A DNA stretch of 64,000 bases from an uncultured Eubacteriales bacterium (GTDB taxonomy: Bacteria > Bacillota > Clostridia > Oscillospirales > Acutalibacteraceae): the NCBI GenBank assembly GCA_964557975.1, contig CAZLCG010000003.1:2239-66238 (forward strand), written 5' to 3'. Position 1 is the first letter of the stretch, and every line of letters begins with the position of its first letter. The translations under genes and the position numbers were made by a program. Under the pieces are notes generated by a model. It did no database searches. It was not told where the DNA came from and saw nothing but the letters and a program-made list of their open reading frames with translations. Shown here piece after piece: positions 3,897 to 25,200 of the stretch.

Positions 3897-4429
3897 TACA
3901 GAACACCTCCTTCACTTAAATCCGCAAGACCGTTTTTATTGTAAACCTCAGCTGCTTCATTGGTATTCTTGATAAGTTCATACGCCGAAATAAATCCAAA
4001 GCAAACTATTTCAAGCGCGGCAATTTCCTTACCCGTGGTTTCCATTTTAAAGCCGTAACGCGGAGCGTTTGCCCTGAGACGCTTTGCAAGCTTGTAGGTC
4101 CAATAAATACGATACATACCGAAAGTGAACAGACTGAGTAAGAAAGCAGTCAAAAAGCTTTCCGACTCCTCGCCGTCACCCTCGCACATAGTATTGATGT
4201 CGAGAGATAAACGGTAATTAAAATAAATTTTATACAGATTTCTTGTAAATAAGGTTACAAACGCAGCCGAAGCAAGCGTAACAAAAAGCATGGTTGCCTG
4301 CGCGGCGATTCCCTGAGTGATGATTGTAGCGACAATTCCCACTACAAGTCCGAAGCACAAGCCGATGCCGAGATTTATAAAGGATGACAAAATGAATTTT
4401 GTCATGCTTCTCTCTTCGATTTTTTCCAT
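3896..4429 (-). CDS. DUF4234-like membrane protein, paralogue of the N-terminal part of 2754..3896
   Basis: FTFGMYRIYWTYKLAKRLRANAPRYG motif and TM helices. It shares the loop motif C-x-GD-x-EE with the neighbouring gene. Confidence 0.6.
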   Translation of the reverse strand: MEKIEERSMTKFILSSFINLGIGLCFGLVVGIVATIITQGIAAQATMLFVTLASAAFVTLFTRNLYKIYFNYRLSLDINTMCEGDGEESESFLTAFLLSLFTFGMYRIYWTYKLAKRLRANAPRYGFKMETTGKEIAALEIVCFGFISAYELIKNTNEAAEVYNKNGLADLSEGGVL

Positions 4430-4445
4430 AATTTTTCTCCCTTTA

Positions 4446-5051
4446 TTATTCGTCTTTATCAGTTTCTTTTTTTACGCTGTCCCAGTTAAACTTCGCGGAA
4501 CAGCAGGGAATAAACAGTAAATTAGTTTCACCGAGCGATAAAACATCATAAGAAGAAATTTTTGTCGCCTCTAAAACAACTTTTTCGTTCAAATAAAACA
4601 ACTGCTTTGCTTCACCGGGCTGAACCAAAAACATATTACTTTTCGGCTCATAAAGTATTATTGCATGCTTTTCTCTTGAAATTGAATTATCCTTTTCCAA
4701 GGCAACATCCATTTCCGAGGAACGACCGATAAAGTTTCTTCCCGCTTTAAGTTTAAAATCTTGTCCCAAATGCTTTCCCGAAATTGCTACAAGCCAACCT
4801 ACAACAGGTTCCACATCTTCGGCACCGAGATCATCGTAAATACCGACAGTTTTTGAAAACTCTTCAACATCGGGTTCGGGAATAGGTTCGGTTATTTCGG
4901 GCTCAGGAGGCGTTAAAGGCTGCGTATAGAGATTATCTTCTCCATTTTCGCCCTCAACAACGGTACTGATCCTTGTCTGATTGCAAAACGGACATTCCGA
5001 GAACCGTTCCGCATCATAAAAATGACCGCTTTCACATCTGATTAAATTCAT
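4446..5051 (-). CDS. Zinc-ribbon + (degenerate) FHA domain protein
   Basis: N-terminus MNLIRCESGHFYDAERFSECPFCN, acidic/Pro linker, C-terminus FIGRSSEMDVAL...SISREKHAIILY. Start chosen at ATG 5051, preceded by AGGAGAAGG. The ORF track extends to 5123. Confidence 0.65.
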   Translation of the reverse strand: MNLIRCESGHFYDAERFSECPFCNQTRISTVVEGENGEDNLYTQPLTPPEPEITEPIPEPDVEEFSKTVGIYDDLGAEDVEPVVGWLVAISGKHLGQDFKLKAGRNFIGRSSEMDVALEKDNSISREKHAIILYEPKSNMFLVQPGEAKQLFYLNEKVVLEATKISSYDVLSLGETNLLFIPCCSAKFNWDSVKKETDKDE

Positions 5052-5109
5052 TTTTTCCTTCTCCTTTTTTATATTTTTATAAAAACAGTATTTGACTCCA
5101 ATACTGTAA

Positions 5110-5967
5110 TTAACTGAAATCATTAAACTTGATAATTATTACAGATGTATTATCCTGACCGCGCAAATCCTTGCTTAATACGCAATCGGTAAGAGCAGCC
5201 GCACATTGCTTCATATCTTCGCTCACGGAAGACACTACTGCCAACATTTCATCCATGTCTAATGCACGGTACAGACCGTCGCTGCACAATAAAATACAGT
5301 CACCGTCAAACAGCGGAAAAGGCTTGGTATTTATATCAATATACTTTACTCCACCCATTCCGATATAACTTACAAGTGCGTCCTTTTGGGGATTTTTATC
5401 AGCCTCATCCCGTGTTATTTCACCTTTAATAACCTTATCATTCAGTATCATTGAATAATTATGGTCATGTGTTATACATCTTATTTTATTGTTGCGAATA
5501 ATATAAATCCTGCTGTCCCCTACAGATAACCAGTTCAATTTACCGGAATCAACAGCAATGCTCACCAATGTTGTTCCCGAATTTAACAAACTGCCGTCAT
5601 CGCTTTTCAAGCACCTCACCGACAAATCGAGATCTTGAACAATTCTTCTGTAAAATGTTGAAATATCATCATTCTTTCTTATTTTATGAAAGGAATCATT
5701 AAGCAAAGACGCACAGGTGAAGCTTGCTTTTCTTCCACCGTTAAGTCCGCCCATACCGTCACACAGAGTAGCTATAGCACGTCCGTTTTCGTAATACATA
5801 TACTCATCATCAGCTATAACGGTATCCTGCTGTTCTTTTCTTTTTCCTATAACAGATGAAAGACCAATATCCAGACTGTTCGCAACACCCGCAAGCTCAA
5901 TTGTTTTTAACCCGTCGAAATCCTCAAAGTCGTTATTAACTTCTGTCAATAAAACATCTCCAATCAA
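5110..5967 (-). CDS. PP2C-family Ser/Thr phosphatase (paralogue 3)
   Basis: ATLCDGMGGLNGGRKAS, LLCSDGLY and DNTSVIIIK motifs. TTG start overlaps the kinase stop by 4 nt. Confidence 0.85.
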   Translation of the reverse strand: MIGDVLLTEVNNDFEDFDGLKTIELAGVANSLDIGLSSVIGKRKEQQDTVIADDEYMYYENGRAIATLCDGMGGLNGGRKASFTCASLLNDSFHKIRKNDDISTFYRRIVQDLDLSVRCLKSDDGSLLNSGTTLVSIAVDSGKLNWLSVGDSRIYIIRNNKIRCITHDHNYSMILNDKVIKGEITRDEADKNPQKDALVSYIGMGGVKYIDINTKPFPLFDGDCILLCSDGLYRALDMDEMLAVVSSVSEDMKQCAAALTDCVLSKDLRGQDNTSVIIIKFNDFS

Positions 5968-7394
5968 TCAAAATCAACAACAAACATATACTGTTTTACC
6001 GCTGTATAAAACTTAGTGCCCGGAGTGATTTTATACTCAACATTTTTTTTGAGCCTTGTTCCGTCCTCAAAATAAGTTCCGTTTGAGGACGTATCGCATA
6101 AAAACAAATCGTTTCCGCTGAATCTTATGTAACAATGATTCCTTCCCGTTACATTCTTAGAGTCGTTAATAACATAACTGCACCCCATGGGAACCCGCCC
6201 TATAATAAATTTGTTCTTTCGACCAATCATTGTTTTGTTGTATCTTTTATTACCTTTTATTTCTGCAAGATACGGATATTTTGTAATTTTAAACTCCGGC
6301 GTGGATTTAGGAAGCTTGACCGGCTGCAACAACGGCTTTGAGAGAGCAGGCGGCTTGGGAGACGTCGGCGGAATTGGGGGCATTGACGGTTTAGAATGAG
6401 CCGACGGCTTGGAAGGCGTAGCAGATTTAATATTTATACCGCTCAAATCGTTAAGCAATGAAACAAAATCCTGATACCTTTTTTTATAATCCAAGGAAAG
6501 CCCTTTATCTATTACATCAGATATCTTCGTTGAAACATTGCATCCCATGCTTTTAAGCGTGGGTTGTGGAGTCCCCCTGTATCTGTACAGAGCGTCAACC
6601 AAAGGTTGACCTGAAACTATGTTATAAAAAGTAGCGCACAGAGCATAAACATCACTCCAGGGACCTTGATTTCCATTTGTGCTGTATTGTTCCGGAGGAG
6701 CAAATCCGGGCTTGAGCAATATAGACATACCTTTATTCTGTAGACTTACATAATTCCTCGCAGCACCGAAATCAATCAGCTTTATTCCTCCGTTACTCGT
6801 AACAATGATATTTTCCGGGCTTATATCTCTATGTAATATGTTCTTTTTATGAATTTCCATAAGAGAACTGGCAACGGTTACAAACACCTCATATGCAAAA
6901 TCGGGATCAAGCTTTCCTCCATTTAAACGTGCCCTTCTTCTTAAATCCATCCCGTCAAGATATTCCATTACCAAATATGCTGTATTATTCTGTGAAAAAT
7001 ATGCGTATATATTAACAACTGTCGGATTACCCTGCAGATTTAACAAGGTTCTTGCCTCATCCATAAATTTTTCGCGCCCGTGTGCAAAAACGTTTCGTGA
7101 TTTTGTATCGGAAAAAGGCTCAATATTGAATGTATTATCGCATCTTTTTGAATACTCGGACGGCATATATTCCTTAATCGCACATAATTTACCGTATTGG
7201 TTATCCAATGCAATATAAGTAATACCGAATCCGCCTCTGCCGAGGACACGTCCAATTAAGTATCTATTATTAAGCAGAGTAAATTCAGGTAATACTCCCG
7301 AAAACTTTTTTCGATTAATCAAATCGTATCCGCAGTGTGAGCATCTTGATTCATTTGTTAACTTTTGAAAACAATTAGGGCACAATTTTTCCAT
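5964..7394 (-). CDS. Hanks-type Ser/Thr kinase with N-terminal zinc ribbon, Pro-rich linker and C-terminal FHA domain; no TM segment seen
   Basis: CPNCFQ...CSHCGY; GRGGFGITY...CAIKEY; HRDISPENI; DFGAAR; GFAPPEQ; linker SKPSMPPIPPTSPKPPALSKP. C-terminus IIGR...GRNHCYIRF...DTSSNGTYFEDG. ATG 7394 has GGGAG 8 nt upstream. The ORF track starts at GTG 7403. Confidence 0.85.
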   Translation of the reverse strand: MEKLCPNCFQKLTNESRCSHCGYDLINRKKFSGVLPEFTLLNNRYLIGRVLGRGGFGITYIALDNQYGKLCAIKEYMPSEYSKRCDNTFNIEPFSDTKSRNVFAHGREKFMDEARTLLNLQGNPTVVNIYAYFSQNNTAYLVMEYLDGMDLRRRARLNGGKLDPDFAYEVFVTVASSLMEIHKKNILHRDISPENIIVTSNGGIKLIDFGAARNYVSLQNKGMSILLKPGFAPPEQYSTNGNQGPWSDVYALCATFYNIVSGQPLVDALYRYRGTPQPTLKSMGCNVSTKISDVIDKGLSLDYKKRYQDFVSLLNDLSGINIKSATPSKPSAHSKPSMPPIPPTSPKPPALSKPLLQPVKLPKSTPEFKITKYPYLAEIKGNKRYNKTMIGRKNKFIIGRVPMGCSYVINDSKNVTGRNHCYIRFSGNDLFLCDTSSNGTYFEDGTRLKKNVEYKITPGTKFYTAVKQYMFVVDFD

Positions 7395-7418
7395 AATAAA
7401 CACTCCCTTAAAGCAACG

Positions 7419-8153
7419 TCATTTTATGTTAACAAGAATCGCCGAATAATTATCCATTCCGTTACCGAGTCCTTTCCCTTTGACTATATCAATCATTTCA
7501 TTCAGAGCGTCGTAAGTGCTTAAATCTTTTTTTAGAATCGACAGCATATTCTTTTCGTCTATCCAATCCCAAAAGCCATCGGAACAAAGTAAAAAAGAAT
7601 CTCCTTTTACTGTTTTAAAATTCACAGAATCCACATCATAATTAACTGTATCATCGTCCATACCCAACGCGCTGAGCAATTTATTTCTGTCAGGGTGACG
7701 TCTAATCTCCGATTCCTTAATTTCACCGCTGTCCGCCAACATCTGCACAACACTGTGATCCTTAGTTCTGGAAATCATCTTACCTTTTCTGAAATGATAC
7801 AAACGAGAATCTCCTATATGACCCCAAGTTGCATTTTTCCCTTTAAGGATTAAAGCAACCATGGTTGTCTTAATTGAAGGCAGACCTTTAAGCTCCTTTT
7901 CTTCAGTAAGCATAGAATTGGCAATTTTAAAACAATCGTCCAAAAAGTTTTCCGAAATTTCTTCAGAGTTCTCAATAACCGCTCCAAAACAATCCGTAAC
8001 AAGATTTGAAGCAATATCTCCGTTTCCATGCCCTCCCAACCCGTCTGCCAAAACGAAGCCATAGGTAAATTCATGAGGATTAACGAAAACTTTTACTGCA
8101 TCCTCATTTTTTTCTTTTTCACCAATATCCGAAAAAGTTGCATATTCAATCAC
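7419..8153 (-). CDS. PP2C-family Ser/Thr phosphatase (paralogue 2)
   Basis: FVLADGLGGHGNGDIAS, LLCSDGFWD and DNYSAILV motifs. GTG start with GGAGG 7 nt upstream. Confidence 0.85.
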   Translation of the reverse strand: MIEYATFSDIGEKEKNEDAVKVFVNPHEFTYGFVLADGLGGHGNGDIASNLVTDCFGAVIENSEEISENFLDDCFKIANSMLTEEKELKGLPSIKTTMVALILKGKNATWGHIGDSRLYHFRKGKMISRTKDHSVVQMLADSGEIKESEIRRHPDRNKLLSALGMDDDTVNYDVDSVNFKTVKGDSFLLCSDGFWDWIDEKNMLSILKKDLSTYDALNEMIDIVKGKGLGNGMDNYSAILVNIK

Positions 8154-14200: not shown

Positions 14201-16123
14201 ATCAATTTTAAAATTGCCGTTCTCATCAACATCGCTATTTATCGTGCTACCATCTTCAAGAACAGCCTCTACTCTTTCTACGCCCGAATGCTCATCTATC
14301 ACCCTGCCTTCCACAATTACATCTTTATTCGTAAATTCATTTTCATTACAATTACTGCTGAGCGACATAATAACACAATTTGTATTATCCATTTTAACGC
14401 AAAAGCTTGTTTCCGTTTCATTACCTGCTTTATCTGCACAAACGAGATAAATATTACCTTCATATGTCTGCGCATTAATAGAAAGGGTGTATTTACTGTC
14501 ATCTTCATCATATTCTAATGTCGCACCATCAACTGTCGCACCATCAACAGCTTCTTTAATTTCAACGCTTTTAATTCCCGAAAGATTATCGGAAACATAT
14601 CCTTCAATTTTTATACCTTTATTGGTCCAATCCGTAATTTTAAATTCAGCACCATCACTGTCCTTAATCGTTAAACTTTCCTCATTAAATTCAGGCCCGG
14701 TTTTGTCAACAAGAATTTTAACTTTATCTTCTGCAATATTTCCCGAGAAATCAACAGCATAGATATAATAATAATTCGTTTCATTATTCGTTTCATTGCT
14801 TACAATAATTTTATATTTACCGTTTTCGTCCACTTTTGCCGATTCAAGTTTAGAAATGTTTTCTATGGTTACATTTTCAATCTCTTTAACGGAGTAATAC
14901 ACACCGCTGATGCCGGAGATATATTTAACGCCGTTACTTTCCGTACCTTCGTCAATCACAGAAAACTCGACCGTAACATCACTATTTGTATATTCCTCAT
15001 TATCTGTAAGTTCGCTGATTATGGGCGCAGCATTATCCATAGCATATAGATTTGTTTTATCTAAAGTAATGTTTTCTGTATTAAGAGAAAAACCTATAAA
15101 CTGCTCGTAAACTCCGTCAGCATTCCAGTCAAACATATAGTAATTATTAACAGAAGAATAATTATTAAGAACGTCCTCATTAATAAAAGCCCACATGGTT
15201 ATGTAGCGTTCAATGTCTTCCTCTGAATTTATGTCAGAGTCCTGCGCGTTCCAAAAACTCTTTTCATCAGACCACTCATCATAACCGTTATACAGAGTCT
15301 CGTACTTTACAGCTTTAAGTTCATCAACAGACATACCTTCGGGCGCGGTTACCTTAATACCTGCCCACCAGCCGTCCGATGTCCTGCCGATTGAGGCGTC
15401 AGCCTGTGACCATTGAAGGGTCAACTCACCGTTATTTGTAACAGTAACAACATTTCCGGCCGAACCTTCAACTTCCATAACATCTGCGCCTGTAATTGCT
15501 TCAACATTACCGAGGGAACTTGAAGAGTATACCTGCTCGCCGTCCTTATTCAGCGCTACACAATTAGCGTCAATGCTAAAGGAAATTTCTTGCTCATAGA
15601 TTCCGTCATTATCCCAATCGAATTTATAGCAATTATCAATATATTTGTCGTTATATATAGCATAATTAAGCACTTTTTCATTTATAAAAGCCCACATAGT
15701 TATATAGCGTTCAATTTCTTCCTCTGAATTTATGTCAGAGTCCTGCGCATTCCAAAAGCTCTTCTCATCAGACCACTCATCATAACCGTTATACAGAGTC
15801 TCGTACTTTACGGATTTAAGTTCATCAACAGACATACCTTCGGGCGCGGTAATTTTAATTCCTACCCACCAACCATCGGACGATCTGCCGATCGAGGCAT
15901 CAGCGGCCGTCCAGTCAAGGACAATACTGTCGTTATATATAACAGTAATATTACTCTTATCCTCATCATTAACCACCGCGCAGGACGGTTCGGTTATTGC
16001 AGAGACTTGTCCTAAATTAACATCTTCCGCAGCATATGTATTTACAACAGGAAATGATGTAAACAACATAAGTAACGCTAAAGAAACCGTTAAAATCTTA
16101 TGACCTAATTTAAAGTTTTTCAT
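8216..16123 (-). CDS. Giant (2,635 aa) secreted, C-terminally membrane-anchored repeat protein with many Ig-like/adhesin-type modules
   Basis: Signal peptide MKNFKLGHKILTVSLALLMLFTSFPVVNTYA. Recurrent D(K/N)AGN and TAPxxxV module boundaries. C-terminal TM helix followed by KRKKDKDEEEA, with no LPXTG. Large internal DNA repeats. Confidence 0.85.
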   Translation of the reverse strand: MKNFKLGHKILTVSLALLMLFTSFPVVNTYAAEDVNLGQVSAITEPSCAVVNDEDKSNITVIYNDSIVLDWTAADASIGRSSDGWWVGIKITAPEGMSVDELKSVKYETLYNGYDEWSDEKSFWNAQDSDINSEEEIERYITMWAFINEKVLNYAIYNDKYIDNCYKFDWDNDGIYEQEISFSIDANCVALNKDGEQVYSSSSLGNVEAITGADVMEVEGSAGNVVTVTNNGELTLQWSQADASIGRTSDGWWAGIKVTAPEGMSVDELKAVKYETLYNGYDEWSDEKSFWNAQDSDINSEEDIERYITMWAFINEDVLNNYSSVNNYYMFDWNADGVYEQFIGFSLNTENITLDKTNLYAMDNAAPIISELTDNEEYTNSDVTVEFSVIDEGTESNGVKYISGISGVYYSVKEIENVTIENISKLESAKVDENGKYKIIVSNETNNETNYYYIYAVDFSGNIAEDKVKILVDKTGPEFNEESLTIKDSDGAEFKITDWTNKGIKIEGYVSDNLSGIKSVEIKEAVDGATVDGATLEYDEDDSKYTLSINAQTYEGNIYLVCADKAGNETETSFCVKMDNTNCVIMSLSSNCNENEFTNKDVIVEGRVIDEHSGVERVEAVLEDGSTINSDVDENGNFKIDENGNFKITVFARSYEGQLTVNAYDNAGNGAKAAEGISSLSIDLYMDNEIPTVSVSDPVEEDVKWTNEDVTVSGTVTDNLSDIKAVYYAEENSIDELTIDELTLEYLEAKCSKANFNETENTYEFTIKNEDNYEGNYVIYAVDKAGNISEEKTVAVKMDITAPNDVKINYDGDNISVIEEILSNLFWFYQTSCKVTLSSTDNLSGIKSFEYSLDGGKTFTTIDKESDGNSYKFIESEKSAEASFSIDPQFREKVIASATDKAGNKSNDTIDDKTIVVDSKVPEITVEYTSQAGNANYVDKDNKSVEDLASAERVYYNNSVSATIIIEEENFFEGQVETVKDKDGNVVENRTVHEVGILVEKTIGDKITYIEYLPKNEEGAQQAERKYSDEYEVDYVEWSSNKTSYTTELEFNDDADYKLIVEYTDYSGNNADYKSKLITVDTTAPEIEITYGDEKSDDRVGEGYFLNRTATITVEEHNFDKSAFSAEITAKDIAGNTTISDTAAKKDLEANQWRDDGDTHTLVISYTDDANYTFALNGLEDFAGNNYLTNEKNEGSIYDKDAETPDSFVVDKEAPSDVVIDYSENHTVLETIRNIVFWFFNPSKDEENLGKCTVTLTTTDMTSGLQYFTYSYNGNYTDIHTENIEDENVAKEKGFKVNDSNPSEFTYIFEIPAQFRGKVTASATDNAGNKSNDTIDDKTIVVDSEAPEISVSYSKPANAAEDNSKGINYFSDDVTVTVTVNEENFMDGEYPEDVIDMNITADILGDDETETQESYVVENWTRDDTNQWVGSFTLSTEGDYTLSISYADKSGNEVSYSNSDYPITIDKTAPVVSVEYDNNNVSEKALNETYFNANRTATITVVEHNFAPEYLEDNISIIANSILTENDENEQISTKATEKLAEITDINNWNKEEENNTYTYKIDYTDDAIYDFALISFKDYAKNEMNPDNENKVIYADGTVSPESFVVDTEAPSDVVIDYSENHTVLETIRNIVFWFFNPSKDEENLGKCTVTLTTTDMTSGLQYFTYSYNGNYTDIDIQTENIEDKNVAKEKGFEVNDSNPSEFTYSFEIPAQFRGKVTASATDNAGNTTAKETESEKTIIVDSEAPEISVNYSDPANAAKDNSKGINYFSDDVTVTVTVNEENFMDGEYPEDVIDMNITADILGDDETETQESYVVENWTRDDTNQWVGSFTLSTEGDYTLSISYADKSGNEVSYSNSDYPITIDKTAPVVSVEFDSISPVHTIDGREYYDTNRSAIIKVTEHNFSPEYFDTEDILKALDILGNNVTNYNEYFKKEDNWETDTTDPTGNTHTIEVDFKSDANYTFDFDFVDLAKNNFVFTDDLNNSLNDYPAYLFTVDKTSPKNLSVSYSSNVFETVINAITFGYYDSIMKVTVSADDDTTGVYHIMYSYLTATGVSDVNAQLVNDAISKAEITRDGRTSTAVFSIPKSSLERNSQFNGTVEFTAYDYAENNTYEADTKRVIVDNISPTASITFNEPVQNVNNISYYAGDINATVSINEANFYSQDVEVTVTNNGSIYPVSVNWVDNSVDRHTGTFRITGDGDYIVKIAYSDRSGNDMVTYESNQLTIDTVDPVITVSGINHQSANNDETIGFNVSVTDKNIDVNAFKPELSAVIRNAAGELETIKISLGDPSISINDKGETVYTYTIQNLSVDGFYSLICSAVDYSNHSINIINSGQDNGTTSSEETLNFSVNREGSTFWIETTYNDKYTDNVFLNELDNAYANDKVEIIVHELNVDPVDISDNIDEQTVFAMYNGAETDYITLSEGTGSADNYVKNTLRGAGGWYETLYTLNNENGNFNDDGVYSFSILSFDRAGNSNLNTKSDSGVIKFTVDRTNPVITSNIYEDQIVEAESHTVEFEINDANPDVNTVEVSINGEVVPSESVINISGNIYNVEMSEGNKQSISITSKDLAGNPSEQYEISGITVSTSPLVLFYYSYTVVFWAIVAGILALAFLILLIVFKRKKDKDEEEA
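10498..11315. repeat. Copy 1 of a near-identical ~0.8-kb intragenic direct repeat (partner 11698..12506, period ~1.2 kb)
   Basis: Line-by-line comparison shows long identical runs with a few substitutions and one 9-nt indel. Both copies encode ...APSDVVIDYSENHTVLETIRNIVFWFFNPSKDEENLGKCTVTLTTTDMTSGLQYFTYSYNGNYTDI... Confidence 0.85.
11698..12506. repeat. Copy 2 of the ~0.8-kb intragenic direct repeat
   Basis: See copy 1. Confidence 0.85.
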
Positions 16124-16480
16124 TTTTTTCCTCCGTTAAGTTATTATATATATTTGCTATATTTTTTAGCTGTGTTTGAAACAGAATACCTATCTCTGAT
16201 TTGATTCGGCTCCGGTGCTTAATTGATTTGTACCCCATCTCGAAAATACAACAAGAACAGATTGTTTTTTGCCGCATTTATGACAAAACATAATTATGTT
16301 CTAAATTGAGGGAATTAAACAATGCGGCTCTTTCTGATTGAGAATCTGCATCGCCTTTGATTCAACGTTATTATTAACATTTTTCTTCTTTTGGCAACTG
16401 TTATGATGTTTAAACAGTAATAATATTCACATTGATGTTTTGTAAAACTGAAACCAATATATCAAAAGCAACAATAAAAA

Positions 16481-16936
16481 TTATTTACTGTTTTTATAAA
16501 ATGAACTGTTATACATTTTTCCGTTTAAAATACAGTGCATACAAAATGAAAATGAAAATAATGAAATCAAAACATAACAAAAATATCCCGTCGCATCCGT
16601 AAATATAAGCATAATTATGAATAAAACCAAACTAATAACAAAAATCAAATCAAAAATTGCGGCAAGCTTGTTTTTAAAAAAAGATATCGCACCAAAAAAT
16701 TTACAATCAGTTAATTTTCTGTTATTTGATTTTTTTTTGTAAAATGAATACAATATTATTTGCAAAACGCATCCCGAAATTAACGGAAGCCAAAATAAAG
16801 TACCCGTTAACACTTTAAACAAACTCATATTCTTTTCAATATTGTTTCCTATCGGCATTATTAAAAAATCACACGCCATTAAAAGAAAACATATAACGGA
16901 AATCAATAAAATAATTCTCTTTTTTTGTGCAGTCAT
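16481..16936 (-). CDS. Small polytopic membrane protein (about 4 TM), unknown family
   Basis: Hydrophobic segments throughout. The start directly abuts the upstream stop. Confidence 0.5.
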   Translation of the reverse strand: MTAQKKRIILLISVICFLLMACDFLIMPIGNNIEKNMSLFKVLTGTLFWLPLISGCVLQIILYSFYKKKSNNRKLTDCKFFGAISFFKNKLAAIFDLIFVISLVLFIIMLIFTDATGYFCYVLISLFSFSFCMHCILNGKMYNSSFYKNSK

Positions 16937-17341
16937 CTATATCACCTCGTTGGTACAAACAAAAGTAATATCTTTTTCAATAATAAAATCCGAATTAATT
17001 GCTTTCGCTTTATTTTTTAAAACAACAGTCTCTGATTTGTTTACGCTTGTTTGATTACCGCCGTTTTCGTCCGTCAATGTCTTTATCCTGATGCTCTGTG
17101 AAGGTGTTTTTCTCGGCTTTGCTTTTCTTTCCAAATCTTCAAAAACATTAATTTTATTCCTGCTGTCAGCATTATTTCTTCGCATAGCACGAATTTCATC
17201 AATCTGCTTTTGCTCCAAGGTGCCGTGAGAATCTTTCCATAATGTAGGTATTTTATAAGCAATAAACATCGTTACCGATGTAATAAAAAAGCAAACCGCA
17301 AGAATAACACTTACTATACCCAATGTCAATAAATTTTGCAT
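16937..17341 (-). CDS. Single-pass membrane protein (N-terminal TM, basic/polar tail), unknown family
   Basis: LTLGIVSVILAVCFFITSVTMFIAY followed by a charged tail. It lies 10 nt downstream of the kinase gene. Confidence 0.5.
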   Translation of the reverse strand: MQNLLTLGIVSVILAVCFFITSVTMFIAYKIPTLWKDSHGTLEQKQIDEIRAMRRNNADSRNKINVFEDLERKAKPRKTPSQSIRIKTLTDENGGNQTSVNKSETVVLKNKAKAINSDFIIEKDITFVCTNEVI

Positions 17342-17351
17342 TTATATACCT

Positions 17352-19178
17352 CTATATTTTCTCAATGTTGCATCCGTAAGAGCTGTTGACCATTTTTATT
17401 GTGTTGTTAAGGCTATTCCTTATCCCATCAATCTCTTGCAGCTTCGATTCGTCATTTTCAAAATTTTTTTCCGCGTTGCTTAAAGCCAACGAAAACTCTT
17501 TGAAATATTCTGACATTTCATTTTCGTCAATCTTATTTGTTTTGATTTGGAAGTCAGCGCGATTTTCTTCTAAGATATAAGCCAACCTTTTAAGTGTTTG
17601 TATCGTTACGCTGTCGTACATTTCCGCATCGCTGGTGACAAGTGATAATAAATTTTTGTTGGTAACCCAAAATGAATAATACGGATCTTCAATGGTGTTA
17701 TCATCAAGTATCCCGTACGCTCCCGCATACCTTGCAGCTTCATCAAACTGAAATTCATCGCTGTCATCATTGTTAAATTTATCCTTATGATTTTGAAAAT
17801 ATGATAACAGATAATATGACTTGACTAGGTTATATTTTTTTTCGGATAAGCCTCCGTATTCAACATCGCTTTCTTCAGCAGACAGAATTATGTTTCTAAA
17901 ATACTCCTCCGCCTTTTTTTCACCGATGTACGATTGGTCTGACGCATCCTTAAAATCATTCCAATAAGCTCTTCCGACTTCATACAAGACCGAAATATAT
18001 GTTTCGAGCGAACTTTCTTTTAATTCGCTCAGATTTTCGGTTTCTATACATTTTTTTATACTGCTTTCAACTATTGCGCCCGCAGGGAGGGTTTCGGCAT
18101 CATAACCCTCAGGCATAGATGAATATATAACCGAAACATCTTTTTTCAGCTTGTTTGCAAATCCGATATATGCATCTGTTTTACTGTTATCTATTTCTAT
18201 TGCAGACTGATAGCCCTCAAAAGTATTAAGGTCAACATATGCTTGATAGTTGTTATTTTTTACAGAATTTGCTCCTGTCAAAAAGCCAACAGATAAAACA
18301 GTAAAAACGAAAGTAAGGACCGTAACAGCCAAGAACTGATTTATACGTGATTTTAATTTTTTCTTATATGCGCCTTCAAATTTTTCCAAATTCTCAAGGA
18401 CATATGTTACTTCCGCAAACGACTGATACCTGTCTTTCGGATTCAGCTGCGTACACTTTTGTATAAGCCATTCCAAACCACTTGACAATGAAGGGTCCCA
18501 ATGCCTTATCGGATAAATCTCATACGGCGGCTCTGACGGGTTTTTTCCTGTAACAAGATGATAAAGCGTAACTCCGAAGCTGTAAATATCCGTTCTTGCG
18601 TCAGTCTGCCCCTTTCCTCCGAACTGTTCCGGCGCCGCATAACCCCTTGTGCCAATCCACTCGGTATCGCCCTCCTGCCCCTCCTTATATTCGCGTGCAA
18701 TACCGAAATCAAAGAGTCGTATTGTTCCATCCGGTTTGAGCATTATGTTGGCAGGCTTCATATCGCGATAGATTACAGGCGGATTTTGAGTGTGTAAATA
18801 GTCAAGCACCTCGCTGAGTTGTTTTGCCCATTCTATAACGGCATCCTGCGGTTGAGCGCCATATGCGGAAAGCACCTTGTTTAGCGGTTCGCCTTCTATA
18901 TAGTCCATTACAATGTATACGCTTTTATTTTCCTCAATAATATCAACTATTCTGGGTAATGTCGGATGATCGAGCTTTTTCATTATATTTGCTTCGTGCA
19001 GTAATGCTTCCAAATTCATCTTATTAACGGCATCGTGCTCATCCTTACGGAACTCTTTTATTGCCCATTGTCTGTTAAGGCGCTTATCCATTGCCAAATA
19101 AACAACAGACATACCGCCTCTTCCGATTTCACGGATGATTTCGTATTTACCATCAATAACATCATTAATATGAGCCAA
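17352..19178 (-). CDS. Transmembrane Hanks-type Ser/Thr kinase with an unassigned ~300-aa extracytoplasmic helical domain
   Basis: GRGGMSVVY...WAIKE; YRDMKPANIML; DFGIA; GTRGYAAPEQ; TM FLAVTVLTFVFTVLSVGFLTGA. TTG start with GGGAGA upstream. Confidence 0.85.
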   Translation of the reverse strand: MAHINDVIDGKYEIIREIGRGGMSVVYLAMDKRLNRQWAIKEFRKDEHDAVNKMNLEALLHEANIMKKLDHPTLPRIVDIIEENKSVYIVMDYIEGEPLNKVLSAYGAQPQDAVIEWAKQLSEVLDYLHTQNPPVIYRDMKPANIMLKPDGTIRLFDFGIAREYKEGQEGDTEWIGTRGYAAPEQFGGKGQTDARTDIYSFGVTLYHLVTGKNPSEPPYEIYPIRHWDPSLSSGLEWLIQKCTQLNPKDRYQSFAEVTYVLENLEKFEGAYKKKLKSRINQFLAVTVLTFVFTVLSVGFLTGANSVKNNNYQAYVDLNTFEGYQSAIEIDNSKTDAYIGFANKLKKDVSVIYSSMPEGYDAETLPAGAIVESSIKKCIETENLSELKESSLETYISVLYEVGRAYWNDFKDASDQSYIGEKKAEEYFRNIILSAEESDVEYGGLSEKKYNLVKSYYLLSYFQNHKDKFNNDDSDEFQFDEAARYAGAYGILDDNTIEDPYYSFWVTNKNLLSLVTSDAEMYDSVTIQTLKRLAYILEENRADFQIKTNKIDENEMSEYFKEFSLALSNAEKNFENDESKLQEIDGIRNSLNNTIKMVNSSYGCNIEKI

Positions 19179-19196
19179 AATAATTTCTCCCTACAA

Positions 19197-19967
19197 TCAG
19201 TAAATTGTTTTAATCAATATTGCCGTTATGTTATCTTTCTCGTTTCTCTTCTTGTTAAGATTTACTAAATCAACAAGACTTTTTCTCATTATTCTCTCAC
19301 TTGACATAAGCTCAGGCGCTAAAACGCCGAATATCTCTTCGCTCGAGATCTCATGTCTAAATCCGTCACAACACAATAAAAACTCATCATTTTCTCTTAT
19401 ATCACCTGTTTTAAATTCACAGTCTATATTTTTTGACGCGCCTATACATTGAAGCAATATATTCTTTCTTTTATCTGTCTTAGCTTGATCCGCAGTCATT
19501 CTGTTATGAACCACCTCATTAGCTACAAAGGTGTGATCGGTTGTTATTTGTTCAATGCTATTGTTTAACCTATATATTCTTGTATCACCGATGTGAATTA
19601 AAATAAATTTATTATTAACGCACAAAATTGCGGAAAGGGTCGTTCCTAAGGAAATACCTCTTGCGTTTCCGTATTCCGATATTTTTTCACTCTGTGAAAT
19701 CGCTATACTGTTCCATTGCTTCTTTATCACTTCAAAATCCAAGCCTGTTTTTAATGCTTCTGGGAACACCTGTTCAAACCAATTTGAAAAAGCGTTAACA
19801 ACAAACGCACTCGCAAGTTCCCCGTTTTTAAGGCCTCCCATCCCGTCGCACAAAACAACAAACGCAATATTATACCTTGATGTTTTTGCAATCTTCAATG
19901 TAAATGAATCCTGATTTATTTTTTTTACTAACCCTATATCTGTATGGGCGGCAGATAAATATCTCAT
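19197..19967 (-). CDS. PP2C-family Ser/Thr phosphatase (paralogue 1)
   Basis: VVLCDGMGGLKNGELAS, LLCCDGF and DNITAILIK motifs. Confidence 0.85.
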   Translation of the reverse strand: MRYLSAAHTDIGLVKKINQDSFTLKIAKTSRYNIAFVVLCDGMGGLKNGELASAFVVNAFSNWFEQVFPEALKTGLDFEVIKKQWNSIAISQSEKISEYGNARGISLGTTLSAILCVNNKFILIHIGDTRIYRLNNSIEQITTDHTFVANEVVHNRMTADQAKTDKRKNILLQCIGASKNIDCEFKTGDIRENDEFLLCCDGFRHEISSEEIFGVLAPELMSSERIMRKSLVDLVNLNKKRNEKDNITAILIKTIY

Positions 19968-19981
19968 TATACAGTCCTCAC

Positions 19982-20524
19982 TTATTCTTCAATATAAAAT
20001 TGATACAGCTCATCTCCGAAAGCAATTAAATCACCGTTATCAATTGAAATCATTTTCATAGGTTCAATCGTTGCGCCTTCAACTTGAGTTCCGTTTGTCG
20101 ACCCATTATCAGTAATATAAAATTCATCGGGTCCTTTTATAAAAATCGAAGCGTGGTTATTACTTATGCTTGATTTGCAAATTCTGAAATCCGCATTGTT
20201 TCCGCTGCCTACAGTAAAAATTTGCTTATAAATTCTAACTTTTTCTCCTGATAACGGATTTATAATAAATATATTGCTTGAAGATTTTGCAGCATTTTTT
20301 TCGATTGCTTTTGTTTCAATATTATTAAGCAAAACCGTTTCGTCAGAATTACTCAAATCATTACCGTTAAGCAGAACAGTTTCTCCGAAATTCTCACTTA
20401 CAAAACCGTTTAATTTGACAGTATCGTCAAAATTGTTATTATAATAAGAGGAAACATTTTCAGAATTATGATCAGCGCCCGAATTTTTTTGTTTTTTTGA
20501 AAATAAGTTCTTAAACATATTCAT
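19982..20524 (-). CDS. FHA domain protein (disordered N-terminus, C-terminal FHA)
   Basis: FTVGSGNNADFRI...ISNNHASIF...DNGSTNGTQVEG. Confidence 0.8.
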   Translation of the reverse strand: MNMFKNLFSKKQKNSGADHNSENVSSYYNNNFDDTVKLNGFVSENFGETVLLNGNDLSNSDETVLLNNIETKAIEKNAAKSSSNIFIINPLSGEKVRIYKQIFTVGSGNNADFRICKSSISNNHASIFIKGPDEFYITDNGSTNGTQVEGATIEPMKMISIDNGDLIAFGDELYQFYIEE

Positions 20525-20565
20525 ATTTCACTCTTAAACACAAAAAATTAAGATACAGACAAGGA

Positions 20566-20594
20566 AAATACATTTCGTAGAACTGCAAGTTCTG
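20566..20594. repeat. Left 29-bp inverted repeat (IRL) bracketing the recombinase segment
   Basis: AAATACATTTCGTAGAACTGCAAGTTCTG. Its reverse complement matches 21966..21994 at 28/29 positions. Confidence 0.9.
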
Positions 20595-20595
20595 T

Positions 20596-20637
20596 AATAA
20601 AAAAACGAAGATGCCGAAAATAACAACATCCTCGTTT
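20596..20637 (-). terminator. Rho-independent terminator directly after the recombinase gene and just inside IRL
   Basis: Minus-strand RNA AAACGAGGAUG-13 nt loop-CAUCUUCGUUU, followed by UUUUAUUA. The stem is 11 bp with one G-U pair. Confidence 0.75.
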
Positions 20638-20642
20638 ACCTT

Positions 20643-20662
20643 GACCATATTTTTGACCATAA
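20643..20662 (+). promoter_or_regulatory. Paired GACCAT motifs 12 nt apart (possible arm-type recombinase binding sites), left set
   Basis: GACCATATTTTTGACCATAA. The same arrangement recurs at 21806..21825. Confidence 0.35.
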
Positions 20663-20672
20663 ATATACTAAA

Positions 20673-21764
20673 TTACGCTATAAGATTATTCAACTTTTCG
20701 ATTTGTGACTTTTTTAATTTTATTGATGAATGAACATAGGTATTCAATGTAATCGAAACATTAGAGTGCCCCAAAATTTCACTGAGTGATTTTATGTCAA
20801 CTCCGCATTCAATACATCTGGTTGCAAAAGAATGTCTTAAAGCGTGGTAATTGATATCCTTTATTCCCGCTCTTTTTAAAATCTTATGATACCTGTATTC
20901 ATAAGTCCTTTTCTTTACAAATTCATTTTTTGTTGAAATTACATATGGCGATTCGCTTGTCTTTTTCATCTCGGAAAGTTTAACAAACAGCTTATTTATT
21001 ATTGGTACAAGCCTTACTGAGGCATCTGTTTTTGCCGCACTGATTTCATCATGACTCTTACCGTTTTTGTCATTAACTCTGATTACCGTTGATTTAACTT
21101 TTATAACTTGATTTTCAAAGTCGATATCGCTCCACTTCAGCGCGCAAATTTCTCCTATGCGCAGACCCGTATAAAGTGAGATATATATGCCAAGCGCCGT
21201 ATAATCAAAATTACTCAGTAAGTATTTTTCCAATAAAGCATACTCTGTTGTTGATAATATACGCAATTCCTGCTTTTGCTGTTTAGGCAGATGAATGTCA
21301 AAATTAGAAATAAAAATGAAGTTTTCTTTAATACCGAGCTCCAAAGCGGATTTGATAATAATTGCCATTGTCCGAACATAAGAGTTTGAAAGATAATTGG
21401 TTTTTTCGTCTATAAATTTATTAATCATTACTGATGAAATTCTGCTTATCTTTACTTTTCCCAGATCCGGCTTAATATGCTTATTTATAAGAAAAGCATA
21501 TTTATCCTGTGTTGTTTGCCTGTTTTTTGAACAATTAAATTCGAGCCAATAGTAAAGCAAATCTTCAAAAGTATTGATTATATTTTGACTTTTGACTTTG
21601 GAACATCTCGTTTTTTCTATGTCAAGCTTTCTTTTGGTTTCAGAATAAGTCTTGCTGTAAACTGATTTATACAACGCTTTACCGGTTTCGCTGTAGGAAT
21701 ATATATATCTGCCTTCCCATCTTCCGTCGTTTCTTTTATAAATGTTTTCACCATGTCTGGGCAT
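20673..21764 (-). CDS. Tyrosine recombinase / site-specific integrase with an N-terminal arm-type DNA-binding domain
   Basis: N-terminus IYKRNDGRWEGRY. Catalytic region LYTGLRIGEICALKWSDIDF ... HALRHSFATRCIE ... LGHSNVSITLNTYVH (R..HxxR..H..Y). ATG 21764 has GGGAG upstream. The ORF track starts at GTG 21773. Confidence 0.85.
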   Translation of the reverse strand: MPRHGENIYKRNDGRWEGRYIYSYSETGKALYKSVYSKTYSETKRKLDIEKTRCSKVKSQNIINTFEDLLYYWLEFNCSKNRQTTQDKYAFLINKHIKPDLGKVKISRISSVMINKFIDEKTNYLSNSYVRTMAIIIKSALELGIKENFIFISNFDIHLPKQQKQELRILSTTEYALLEKYLLSNFDYTALGIYISLYTGLRIGEICALKWSDIDFENQVIKVKSTVIRVNDKNGKSHDEISAAKTDASVRLVPIINKLFVKLSEMKKTSESPYVISTKNEFVKKRTYEYRYHKILKRAGIKDINYHALRHSFATRCIECGVDIKSLSEILGHSNVSITLNTYVHSSIKLKKSQIEKLNNLIA

Positions 21765-21805
21765 ATACCTCACACTCCCATTTATTTAATAACCGTTTAT
21801 AAAGC

Positions 21806-21825
21806 GACCATAAAAATGACCAAGA
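21806..21825 (+). promoter_or_regulatory. Paired GACCA(T/A) motifs 12 nt apart, right set
   Basis: GACCATAAAAATGACCAAGA, in the same orientation and spacing as the left set. Confidence 0.35.
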
Positions 21826-21905
21826 ATATGATAAAATCGTTAATTTAAAAACGGCTTACATTGATTTTATTTGATTTTGCCGACCGATAAATTATTAAAT
21901 ATATA

Positions 21906-21935
21906 TTGACATATAATAAAAACATATGATAAAAT
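21906..21935 (+). promoter_or_regulatory. Sigma-A-like promoter facing outward across IRR: TTGACA, 18-nt spacer, extended -10 TGATAAAAT
   Basis: Read directly. It lies about 30 nt inside IRR and points away from the recombinase gene. The region is AT-rich, so a chance match is possible. Confidence 0.45.
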
Positions 21936-21965
21936 ATGACAAAATAATACAGATTTATATGCGTT

Positions 21966-21994
21966 CAGAACTTGCAGTTCTACGAAATATATTT
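21966..21994. repeat. Right 29-bp inverted repeat (IRR)
   Basis: CAGAACTTGCAGTTCTACGAAATATATTT. Confidence 0.9.
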
Positions 21995-22102
21995 ATGTTT
22001 TCAACGTAAGCGTGAATGTCACTGAAGCGGTTATAAATTATGCGATTATACCCCTCGTAATTACAGTATATTCAGCGGTGAATTTTTCAAAAATTTTACT
22101 GA

Positions 22103-22140
22103 CCTCCCGAAAGATGTAAAATAAAACAGCTTTCGGGAGG
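22103..22140 (-). terminator. Hairpin terminator after the LRR protein gene (11-bp stem CCTCCCGAAAG/CTTTCGGGAGG)
   Basis: Perfect inverted repeat with U-rich sequence on both sides. Confidence 0.6.
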
Positions 22141-22218
22141 CTAATTTTATGTCCGATATAAATAAATAAGTTTAATAAAAATATGACATACCTTTTATAT
22201 GAAAATAACGATGACCGA

Positions 22219-25200
22219 TTACGCCACGCCGTACCAGCCGATGCCTTCATATCTCCAGCCGTAGGAAACAAGGCGGTCGTTTTCTGTCTTGCTTGCCGTG
22301 TAGTTGTGGTTGTTCGCAAAAGCGTTCGGGTTATACTGTCTGTAAATCGGAACGCCCTGCGCGTCATCCGAATTCCAGCCGATACCCTCATAATTCCAGC
22401 CGAGCGAAACGAGCCTGTCTCTTTCGGTTACGCTTGCAGTGTAATGATGCTCGCCGCCGTTCTTGTTGTACAGTCTGTAAACGGGAGTTGCAGACTTCGA
22501 GGGCGCGTACCAGCCTATACCTTCATAATTCCAGCCGAGCGAAACAAGATTGTCTTTCTCGCCTACGTTCGACGTATAGAAATGCTCGCCCGAATTGGGA
22601 TTGTAAAGGCGGTACATCGCGATCCTTTTAACAAGCGAATTAAGCGCGTCGGTTATCGCTTCGGTCTGCGCGTCGATTTCCTCCTGCGAAGCGCTGCTTA
22701 CATCGACCGCCAAAGCGCTGTCGAGAGCCGCAAGGCTTTCAGCCGTATATTGGCTCCTGTCTATCGCGTTCGCCTGTTTGACTGCCTTGTCATATTCAGC
22801 AAAATAAACAGTATCTTCGCAAATCACAAATGTTCCGAGCTTACTGACGCTGAAGCATATCTTTCCGTCGTTAAGACTGCATTCAACCGTTTCCCATGAG
22901 CCCGATTCGTTAAGCGCTGCAACCGTAGCTTTTTCAAGGTCACAATCGATTTGAACCTCGACCATACCCGTCGGCTGTATTTCTTCGCCGTCGCTGTATA
23001 GGGTAATTTCATATTGCTCATAGCTGACCATAGTGCTTCCGTCGTCAAGCAATATTGACTGAGCATTGCCGTTAACAACCTTATGACTTTCCATTACCGC
23101 ATTTGCGGGAGCTTTGCTCAGCGTGTCGAGAGTTACAAATTCATTTTTTAAAACAGTATTTGAGGAATATTTCACAGGAGTATAGCATCCGAATTTGACG
23201 CCGCCCGTCATTCTTTCCCTAATATCGTTTATATCATTTATGAAATCCTGAACCTCCTGAACAAGGAAAATAGATTTTAACACCAGCCCTACCGGTCCCG
23301 CCGCTTTTTCAAACAAGCCTTCGGCAATCCCCGCACCCGATCCGAATACCGTTTTAAGCAGACCGTCCAAATCCAAATCCATTTCCTCAAAAACATCCTC
23401 TAAATCCAGCAAAACTCCGGTTGTGAGTGTGTTTATGCTTGCTTCGGTCATGTTTTCGTATAATTTTTTCGTATACTTTTCCTGTATTTTATCGCCTATT
23501 TTAATATATTCTTCACTTGCCAGCCATTTAGCGAAAACGGCGGCTTTGATCTCCCCTATACTGTCCTCGTTAAAGCTGTCCACGCCTTTTACAAAGCTTT
23601 TTATATCATCGCTTAAAGATAATCCCGTAAACAATAGATCGATCATATTATCAATAAGACAGCTCTTTGAAGAGGTTATGTCGGCGGTTATTTTAATCAT
23701 ACCGTCCTGCGGCACATAAAGATCCTTTATTTCCGTGCATTTTGAGGTTGCTTCGCTCCTGAATGAAAACGTATCGCCCTCCACAGCGTCCTTAATAATC
23801 GTATAACCTGCCTCAAAGGTCTCGTATATGCCCTTTGTAAGAGACTCAAACTTTTGAATGTCTTTAACATTTATAAGCTTTCCGTCCGCATCGTATACCT
23901 CAACTACGCCGTTGCAATAATTTTCGTTATAAAGGTTCATCGAGAAGTTGTAGCCGCCCGAAACCTCTTTATATTCAAAGTCCGCGATATATATGCCGTC
24001 GACATATCCGTTATATGTATCCGTTTCCCATGCACACTTATATGTTTTTACAGGGACATTGTCAGCTCGCAATCCCGCCTTTGAATCCTCCGCGACGCTT
24101 ATCGGTATTTTTCTGACCTCTCCCGTTTCGGTATTATTTATCGTTACCGTTGCCGCTCCCGCCGAAACAGCCTCAAAAATAATGTATTTACATTTTTTCA
24201 TTGCTTCGAACGTTTGCCGTAAAAGCGGAAGATCCGAAAAATCGTACATATCTTTATATTTCAGAACAGTCGAGTCCGATGAATATACCACAAGCCCCTC
24301 GGGCAAAAATTCCTCACCGTCTTGAAAATCCGAAACGCAAACGGCAACGGCGTCTCCGACATAATACGAAAGGCTGCTGTTGTTTATTATAATTCTCATT
24401 CCGTCCGATTGTTCGGAAAACGAATTATAATGTATCTCAGCGTTTATCAGGCACTCGTTATTACTGCCAATAGATATATTGTTCCATTGTGTTTCTGTTC
24501 CGGCATAATAAACATCCGTTAGCGAGGTGCAACCGAGGAAAGCCTCATCTCCTATACTCGTCACGCTGTCGGGTATTGTTACGCTTTTAAGTGAGGAGCA
24601 ATTGCCGAAAGCCCACGAGCCTATACTCGTCACGCTGTCGGGTATCGTTACGCTTTTAAGCGAGGTACAATTCTCAAAAGCACACCATCCTATACTCGTA
24701 ACGCTATCGGGTATTGTTACGCTTGTAAGCGATGTGCAACCGGAGAAAGTTCGACTCCCTATACTCGTAACGCTGTCGGGGATAGTTACGCTTGCAAGCG
24801 AGGTGCAAGAAGCAAAAGCCCAATCTCCTATACTTGTAACGCTGTCAGGTATTGTTGCGCTTGTAAGTGATTTGCAATAATAGAAAGCCCAATCGGCAAT
24901 TGTAAGTGTTCCCTCTTTAATTTCGCAGCTGCCCGATATATCTGTATAATTTGTTTCAATTAAATAATTACCAATGTACAGTACGCCGTTTTCCCAATTA
25001 TCACTGTTGTTATAGTACGCGGTATTATCGAAAGCATAACTTCCTATGCTCATTACGTTGTCGGGTATTGTTATGCTTTCAAGAGAGGTGCAATACCAGA
25101 AAGCAAAACTTTCTATGTTCGTTACACTGTCAGGTATCGTTACGCTTGTAAGCGATGTGCAATGAGAGAAAGCATATTCTCCTATACTTGTCACGCTGTC

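Follow-up and report, generated by a model that had tools for sequence, protein, structure and literature searches.

In the Hin/hix switch of Salmonella, and in the Gin, Cin and Pin systems of phages, the invertible segment contains both the gene for its recombinase and an outward promoter, and a neighbouring operon is transcribed from that promoter only when the segment lies one way round. Hin, Gin and Cin are serine invertases and need a Fis-bound enhancer. In fimS of Escherichia coli, flipped by FimB and FimE, and in the MrpI system, a tyrosine recombinase inverts a promoter-bearing segment between short inverted repeats, which makes the adjacent operon phase-variable; fimS measures about 314 bp and its recombinases, proteins of about 200 amino acids (aa) without an arm-binding domain, are encoded outside it. 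A recombinase is occasionally found within the inverting segment itself, as with Hin (PMC5903667). The RecV switches of Clostridioides difficile (cwpV, flgB, cmrRST and pdcB) are tyrosine-recombinase inversions at surface and signalling operons, one of them coding for a signal-transduction system (PMC5903667; bioRxiv 10.1101/690230). In phase-variable type I restriction-modification loci, such as the pneumococcal SpnIII/ivr locus with CreX/PsrA, a tyrosine recombinase lies within the inverting locus (PMC7672463, PMC11868660), and invertons of about 250 bp in Clostridia have been linked to neighbouring, not internal, tyrosine recombinases (PMC11892184). Here we describe a 1,429-bp unit, 20566-21994, in a 64-kb stretch of contig CAZLCG010000003.1 from an uncultured Eubacteriales bacterium (hereafter the window), which very probably is a self-contained invertible promoter cassette that carries its own tyrosine recombinase and switches the adjoining operon of FHA, PP2C phosphatase and Ser/Thr kinase genes.

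The initial annotation of this DNA, made from the sequence alone, had proposed Hin/Gin-like logic carried out by a tyrosine recombinase, and this was supported: the recombinase gene lies inside the segment and only tyrosine-recombinase domains were found in its product, ruling out a serine invertase of the Hin/Gin/Cin kind. Unlike Hin, the window enzyme is a tyrosine integrase, a class that uses the Holliday-junction pathway; its core sites measure about 27 nt and are laid out 9-9-9, and candidate arm sites take the place of an enhancer. It also differs from the Fim recombinases, being larger (363 aa), encoded inside the segment and predicted to have an arm-binding domain; the Fim-type invertase models NF007370 and NF007371 scored it at 32.2 and 20.5 bits, so far below their cut-offs of 221 and 222 that a FimB/FimE-type identity was rejected. 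With RecV it shares the tyrosine-recombinase inversion that controls surface and signalling operons in Firmicutes, but RecV acts in trans on several small scattered switches, whereas each cassette here has its own recombinase and its own site sequence. The SpnIII/ivr "epigenetic invertons" likewise encode a tyrosine recombinase inside the inverting locus, but there hsdS coding segments are shuffled, the sites lie within genes and no promoter is moved. The integrases of Tn916, Tn1549 and lambda gave the best sequence and fold matches, and in the predicted model the three strands and helix at the N-terminus and the strands inserted in the catalytic domain agree with the IntTn916 subgroup (PMC8138268). 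The Tn916, Tn1549 and lambda enzymes move cargo-bearing elements into and out of DNA at directly oriented att sites; the window unit, by contrast, has inverted sites and is 1.4 kb long with a single gene, and its relatives show inversion in place. In short, the cassette pairs Hin-like logic with a tyrosine integrase and is set apart from Fim and RecV by protein architecture, an internal recombinase and a cassette-specific site. A full-text search, with incomplete coverage of the literature, found no published description of such self-encoded tyrosine-integrase promoter cassettes, and the 250-bp Clostridia invertons were the closest hint.

The decisive result is that close relatives naturally carry the segment both ways round and that the breakpoints fall within the repeats. 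A recombinase 67% identical to that of the window (P0024) adjoins the same FHA-PP2C-kinase target. Eight contigs with exactly this protein, L111 among them, carried the hydrolase, recombinase, FHA, PP2C and kinase genes all on one strand; on a ninth, L113 (128 kb), the FHA-PP2C-kinase array diverged from the 5' end of the recombinase gene and the hydrolase stood on the opposite side. Comparison of L113 with L111 at the DNA level gave flanks that were 99.3-99.7% identical, swapped and reverse-complemented, and a 1411-nt segment 99.6% identical, and the alignments overlapped solely in the 23-nt repeats, which puts the breakpoints inside the repeats. The P0024 relative has the parts seen in the window, namely an outward promoter (P_out, TTGACA-18-TGATAAAAT), TGGTC-N7-TGGTC at both ends and a terminator hairpin. 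A second relative, whose recombinase (P0054) is 52% identical to the window's, adjoins a Tad-pilus operon (TadZ, T2SSE, T2SSF) and was found one way round on five contigs (L102, L104, L105, L106 and L109) and the other way on four (L101, L103, L107 and L108); its 1486-nt segment was 99.7-100% identical in four comparisons (100% in three of them), between flanks of 99.1-99.8%. Flips were also seen between species (L003 against L002 and L004; L020 against L019 and L021; L031 against L042, L051, L057 and L067). The inverted arrangement that the initial annotation had predicted was thus found in relatives of the window cassette, and every refuting condition named there that could be examined came out in favour of a switch.

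Weaker signs of mixed-orientation populations may be read from short contigs. Many homologs sat on contigs of 1.41-1.48 kb, and one Logan contig of 1413 bp (L092) was bounded exactly by a 22-nt repeat; the Logan assembly uses a k-mer of 31, and a repeat shorter than this makes the contig informative. The size of a similar contig, L093 (1429 bp), was set aside as uninformative: with a repeat of about 30 nt, near the k-mer length, a break was expected anyway. On L098 (ENA ERZ1304656 NODE_7031, 1909 bp) the FHA-side flank was present on both ends of the cassette, positions 1-68 being the exact reverse complement of the other junction; this contig either merges reads of both orientations or is an assembly artefact at the repeat.

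Contigs of segment size also prompted an insertion-sequence reading, and more broadly the unit could be a small IS-like or mini integrative mobile element, with the repeats as its ends and the two orientations as independent insertions at palindromic targets. Family members do lie beside very different genes in many taxa, two copies 89.5% identical (L010 and L016) occupy separate places in one metagenome-assembled genome (MAG), and plasmid pRUMAL02 of Ruminococcus albus 7 has seven homologous places. A solitary palindromic site on L090 stands exactly where relatives carry the cassette beside the feoB-side flank, the cassette can be more conserved than its flanks (92% against 79% between L002 and L003), and integrases with an arm-binding domain are typical of mobile elements (PMC8138268). 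We nevertheless regard this explanation as improbable. Flipped and unflipped forms shared both flanks at above 99% with breakpoints in the repeats, which independent insertion would not yield, and the same locus was occupied across several species. No DDE transposase domain (Pfam search of the window), no target-site duplications beside the repeats and no cargo genes in the segment were found at the window cassette. The insertion-sequence version was rejected because the two forms share both flanks and the sites are inverted up to and including their centre, as well as for the missing transposase and duplications and for paralogs in one MAG that are only 89.5% identical. Mobility over evolutionary time may coexist with switching.

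The ends of the unit resemble complete core sites that are inverted relative to each other. As the initial annotation had claimed, the two 29-nt repeats, complementary at 28 of 29 positions (97%), enclose 1371 nt in which the recombinase gene stands alone: the sole open reading frame (ORF) of at least 60 aa between them is 20673-21773 on the minus strand, and all others were 54 aa or shorter. A 22-nt core, TTTCGTAGAACTGCAAGTTCTG, covering the outer arm, the spacer and the start of the inner arm of a proposed recombination site, is perfect in both repeats and occurs twice in the window, both times in the repeats, against an expectation of 0.00; the single mismatch falls in the outer part of the repeat. 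The window holds one copy of the cassette. The outer arm and spacer are perfect in both window sites, and the asymmetric spacer centre, GCA, reads identically from outside to inside at the left and the right, so the sites are truly inverted. Tyrosine recombinases acting on inverted sites produce inversion, not excision, and inversion is therefore what would be predicted here, which is a further point against a mobile element.

We scanned genomes with the recombinase and, out of at least 375 genome matches, recovered 80 loci at 30-75% identity, which came from Oscillospiraceae/Ruminococcus, Lachnospiraceae, Enterococcus, Lacrimispora and other taxa; a protein search gave homologous proteins in the thousands. 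Family statistics below cover about 58 homologous loci (33-80% identity) and neighbour counts cover 54. Members are annotated merely as "site-specific integrase". At nearly all scanned loci the recombinase proved, in a script-based search, to lie between the arms of an inverted repeat of its own (17-55 nt; span 1.33-1.65 kb), with the upstream arm about 200-270 nt before the start codon and the downstream arm about 80-250 nt after the stop. Orthologous recombinases, and nearly all family members examined, had thus kept their repeats. Anchoring the arms on their shared motif gave the core-site consensus TTTCGYARA-N9-TYTRCGAAA (9-9-9), so that a single repeat has the appearance of a full core site, with two binding arms in inverted orientation on either side of an asymmetric spacer. 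The lox and FRT sites are complete tyrosine-recombinase core sites with a comparable arm-spacer-arm layout. Between orthologs the spacer centre varied (GCA, GCG, GTG, ACG, ACA), and wherever both arms were available it was the same in both, a co-variation that fits sites required to pair with each other.

The recombinase itself matched the Pfam families Phage_integrase (PF00589, 1.7e-29) and Phage_int_SAM_3, and no NCBIfam model reached its cut-off for this protein. Its ORF is intact, and the catalytic residues R202, K245, H307, R310, H333 and Y343 are all present and invariant across 38 homologous sequences. By sequence the closest solved structure was the Tn1549 integrase (6EMY, E = 4e-19). 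An AlphaFold model (pLDDT 86.7) placed an N-terminal unit (residues 8-57; strands 8-10, 16-24 and 30-37, helix 40-57) before core-binding helices and, after these, a catalytic domain into which strands are inserted at 220-254. Foldseek ranked the Tn1549 integrase first (6EMY/6EMZ), followed by full-length lambda integrase (1Z1B/1Z1G), aligned over 349-374 columns. An N-terminal unit of this kind and a strand insertion in the catalytic domain mark the IntTn916 "complex" arm-binding subgroup, which has been tied to mobile elements (PMC8138268). The predicted structure points to a heterobivalent integrase of the Tn916/Tn1549/lambda type with a putative arm-binding domain, and to a mechanism more like that of lambda and Tn916 than that of Fim. 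Candidate arm-type sites are two TGGTC-N7-TGGTC tandems, both within the segment, near its ends and on the recombinase strand; they are the only two in the window (0.06 expected). In many other clades a related motif, [G/C]GTCAA, is common to both inner ends.

A plus-strand TTGACA-18 promoter just inside the right repeat, pointing outward, had been proposed in the initial annotation, and at the sequence level it held up, with 11 of 12 consensus positions and an upstream TG. In eight aligned orthologs the -35 and extended -10 elements of P_out (TTGACA and TGATA(A/G)AAT, on the strand opposite the recombinase) were invariant at a constant 18-nt spacing, in a repeat-to-start-codon stretch that was otherwise variable save for a few conserved blocks. 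Across the family the best outward sigma-70 match averaged 11.3, compared with 9.3 on the recombinase strand and 9.0 in shuffled sequences; a score of at least 11 was reached outward at 31 of 58 loci and on the recombinase strand at 2, with the outward -10 element in most cases ending 40-100 nt short of the repeat's outer edge. A near-consensus outward promoter thus appears to be a family-wide trait. In the flipped ortholog L003, a stretch of about 110 nt takes in the promoter, then the repeat, then a Shine-Dalgarno sequence and finally the FHA start.

The minus-strand terminator noted earlier just inside the left repeat was upheld in part. The hairpin and its T-run are real (folding energy -19.1 kcal/mol, z = -3.7) and are kept in the window clade through compensatory changes (AAACGAGGATG... 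against TAACGGAAGTCC..., with a T-run after each), but they are not general in the family: a crude scan found such terminators in sense at 18 of 58 loci and in antisense at 17, and we rejected the terminator as a family-wide part. It is better seen as a clade-specific refinement than as a defining part of the cassette family.

From these parts we propose the following mechanism. The integrase would attach to the core sites and also to the TGGTC-N7-TGGTC repeats inside the segment, and strand exchange between the two inverted core sites would flip the segment. As presently oriented, P_out would fire away from the FHA operon and into a hairpin beyond the right repeat, while the recombinase's own terminator would block read-through into the operon. 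Inversion would bring P_out to a point about 100 nt ahead of the FHA start codon and turn the operon ON; the distance of about 95 nt given in the initial annotation agrees with our coordinates, measured from the -10 element. Fixed DNA of 42 nt separates the left repeat from the FHA start, too short a stretch for a promoter and leader, and since P_out also points away, the window orientation is predicted to be OFF and the flipped one ON. What the data show is the anatomy, its conservation and the two orientations in close relatives; catalysis by the window recombinase, the activity of promoter and terminator, the arm-site role of the TGGTC tandems and switching of the window copy itself are all deduced from these. 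The positions of the parts are listed in the table.

Table. Features of the cassette and its surroundings in the window (nt, nucleotides)
Feature	Position	Strand	Description
Left inverted repeat	20566-20594		Read as core recombination site; sequence match
Left site, proposed layout	20573-20581; 20582-20590; 20591-20599		Outer arm TTTCGTAGA; spacer ACTGCAAGT; weak inner arm TCTGTAATA; proposed from family consensus
Right inverted repeat	21966-21994		Read as core site; sequence match
Right site, proposed layout	21961-21969; 21970-21978; 21979-21987		Inner arm; spacer; outer arm
Tyrosine recombinase gene	20673-21764	-	Likely ATG at 21764; 363 aa
Intrinsic terminator 3' of recombinase gene	20596-20637	-	14-bp stem (20637-20603), then U-run
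TGGTC-N7-TGGTC tandem, candidate arm-type site, segment 3' end	20643-20659	-	Invariant in orthologs
TGGTC-N7-TGGTC tandem, candidate arm-type site, segment 5' end	21806-21822	-	Same strand as the other tandem; invariant in orthologs
Outward promoter P_out	21906-21935	+	TTGACA, 18 nt, TG-n-TAAAAT; reads out through right repeat; 11/12 matches plus upstream TG
Weak candidate recombinase promoter	21913-21942	-	TTGTCA-18-TATTAT; overlaps P_out; putative
Strong hairpin outside right repeat	22103-22140		-22.3 and -26.0 kcal/mol on the two strands
Predicted target operon	16481-20524	-	ORF and Pfam calls
FHA gene	19982-20524	-	Start 20524, 42 nt beyond left repeat
PP2C phosphatase gene	19197-19967	-	
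Ser/Thr kinase gene	17352-19178	-	
Two small ORFs	16937-17341 and 16481-16936	-	

Several observations weigh against reading the window copy as a working switch. It was seen in one orientation: exact-protein look-ups of its recombinase and FHA protein returned a single Logan contig (L001), identical to the window over 15821-22272 in the same orientation; it is the only other assembly and comes from the same sample. L098, at a coverage of 1.5x, may owe its structure to misassembly. In the window core sites the inner arms are weak and agree with an ideal arm at only about 3 of 9 positions. Promoter and terminator are sequence predictions, and no good promoter for the recombinase itself was found across the 58 loci, where sense-strand promoters were not enriched. 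For the arm-binding domain the Pfam match was not significant (AP2, E = 0.18), so it was judged from the predicted fold; Pfam often misses this domain in the IntTn916 subgroup (PMC8138268).

One way to read the single orientation is that the window copy is a frozen relic, which inherited its parts from an active ancestor, no longer inverts and leaves its operon to be driven otherwise. A mismatch in the outer part of the repeat would fit, and decay does occur, as in an R. albus 7 member with repeats at 77%. We consider a relic decidedly unlikely because the parts are intact: the ORF and all catalytic residues are preserved, the 22-nt core is perfect in both arms, and the promoter, terminator and TGGTC repeats, all intact, agree with those of flipping orthologs.

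The likely target of the switch lies beyond the left repeat. The first five genes there, from 20524 down to 16481, are tightly packed, and the FHA-PP2C-kinase array adjoins the cassette also in L004, L084, L094, L111 and others. The initial annotation had extended phase variation to the whole signalling and adhesin locus; the first five genes do appear clearly dependent on the switch, but the extension is not justified, because the gene for a 2635-aa Ig-domain protein comes only after a 357-nt gap that holds a promoter-like site. Across the family, a gene beyond the 3'-side repeat and co-directional with the recombinase starts within 450 nt at 44 of 54 loci. Genes lead away from the cassette on both sides at 21 loci, suggesting a two-way toggle, and on the far (3') side only, as in the window, at 23; at seven of the 54 loci the gene leads away on the promoter side only, and these would currently be ON.

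Such arrangements raise the question of whether the segment flips with a different main output, toggling between antisense transcription into an LRR/BspA adhesin gene and the FHA operon, or regulating the recombinase itself. With genes on both sides, as at those 21 loci, the promoter always faces a gene, and in the window it now faces the 3' end of a 1220-aa LRR_5/DUF5648 gene. However, the hairpin at 22103-22140, which probably terminates the LRR gene, would also be expected to stop most P_out transcripts in the present orientation, and the 23 loci with a gene leading away on the far side only resemble the window. In orthologs the neighbour at this position is feoB or a hydrolase gene, not an LRR gene, whereas the FHA array is conserved. 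With a hairpin in between and the LRR gene not a conserved neighbour, we think such an output very unlikely, and control of the FHA-PP2C-kinase operon remains the favoured reading.

What adjoins the cassette elsewhere is diverse. Neighbours include winged-helix and LytTR regulators, response regulators, FHA proteins, LRR and WxL surface proteins, chemoreceptors and TnpB-like proteins, as well as Tad pili and an FHA-FtsK/SpoIIIE protein; the operons beside family members include Ser/Thr-kinase signalling, Tad pili, EssC-like secretion ATPases, two-component regulators and TnpB-like genes. We tentatively suggest, while holding it to be rather unlikely as a full account, that these are plug-in phase-variation cassettes, in which an arm-binding integrase, of a type taken as a marker of mobile elements, has been turned into a self-contained 1.4-kb module (recombinase, invertible consensus promoter and two full sites) that spreads horizontally among gut Firmicutes, lodges at palindromic core-like sites (e.g. 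that of L090) and places the adjacent operon under stochastic ON/OFF or two-way control.

The site on L090 (3523-3549; JAAGKN010000352.1, a 281-kb contig) is a solitary, perfectly palindromic core site, TTGCGTAGA-ACTCGCAGT-TCTACGAAA, without a recombinase. On one side of it is a Tad-pilus operon (TadZ, T2SSE) and on the other the feoB flank next to which relatives carry the cassette, and flank homology begins exactly inside it; it could be an empty site, one left after loss, or a docking site. A metagenome scan with the repeat pattern gave five loci, none from the window species; one match, L087, lay inside a TonB-dependent receptor gene and was dismissed as probably due to chance. In the L002 and L003 pair, the adjoining conserved flanks are about 79% identical and the cassettes 92%, a difference that reflects either tighter constraint on the cassette than on the DNA around it or exchange of the cassette among lineages.

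On pRUMAL02 (NC_014825.1) two family members are adjacent in a cultured strain (L100:5858-9200; about 195800-199150 of the plasmid). The first has perfect 20-nt repeats and a 12/12 outward promoter pointing away from its likely target; the second has a 12/12 outward promoter toward a helicase/sugar-transferase cluster and repeats decayed to 77%, and may therefore be locked ON. Cassette repeats lie at about 197850-197869 and 199127-199146 of the plasmid. With a cassette in this host, the model can be tested directly in culture.

Several consequences follow. Inverton surveys could miss a 1.4-kb class with its own recombinase, since the Clostridia invertons of PMC11892184 are about 250 bp with an adjacent recombinase and surveys of the PhaseFinder type reportedly cap segment size. 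The true extent of phase variation in gut Firmicutes may far exceed what is on record, given that about 58 loci were examined out of at least 375 genome matches and thousands of proteins; eukaryote-like kinase/phosphatase modules, Tad pili and secretion genes are among the neighbours. The finding cuts against the use of arm-binding tyrosine recombinases as markers of mobile elements (PMC8138268), and such cassettes break metagenome assemblies at predictable points. As a compact unit of one protein and two sites, the cassette could also serve as an engineering part.

Some further observations concern neighbouring genes. In the P0003 species (L082:5235-9092, L083:1456-5313) the downstream gene encodes a 1532-aa FHA + FtsK/SpoIIIE protein, an EssC-like secretion ATPase, in place of the FHA-PP2C-kinase trio. 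At six Lachnospiraceae loci (L031, L042, L051, L057, L059 and L067) the gene adjacent to the cassette encodes about 450 aa; at the five unflipped ones it matches a Cas12f1-like TNB domain (TnpB-like). L031 is flipped relative to these, homology having been shown for a conserved flank gene about 2 kb away and not for the adjacent gene. This could point to a phase-variable TnpB or to a link between tyrosine recombinases and TnpB. In the window, a second set of PP2C, Ser/Thr kinase, PP2C and FHA genes, with two for DUF4234 proteins (one also FHA), lies at 2754-8153 on the minus strand, downstream of the Ig-domain protein gene; taken as a whole, the 17.8-kb stretch with both sets is an unusually dense FHA/PP2C/kinase cluster. 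Finally, three direct repeats of about 135-141 nt (68-75% identity) at 22234-22614, at the 3' end of the LRR_5/DUF5648 gene, are units within the C-terminal domain of its product, and L001 ends inside them, at 22272.

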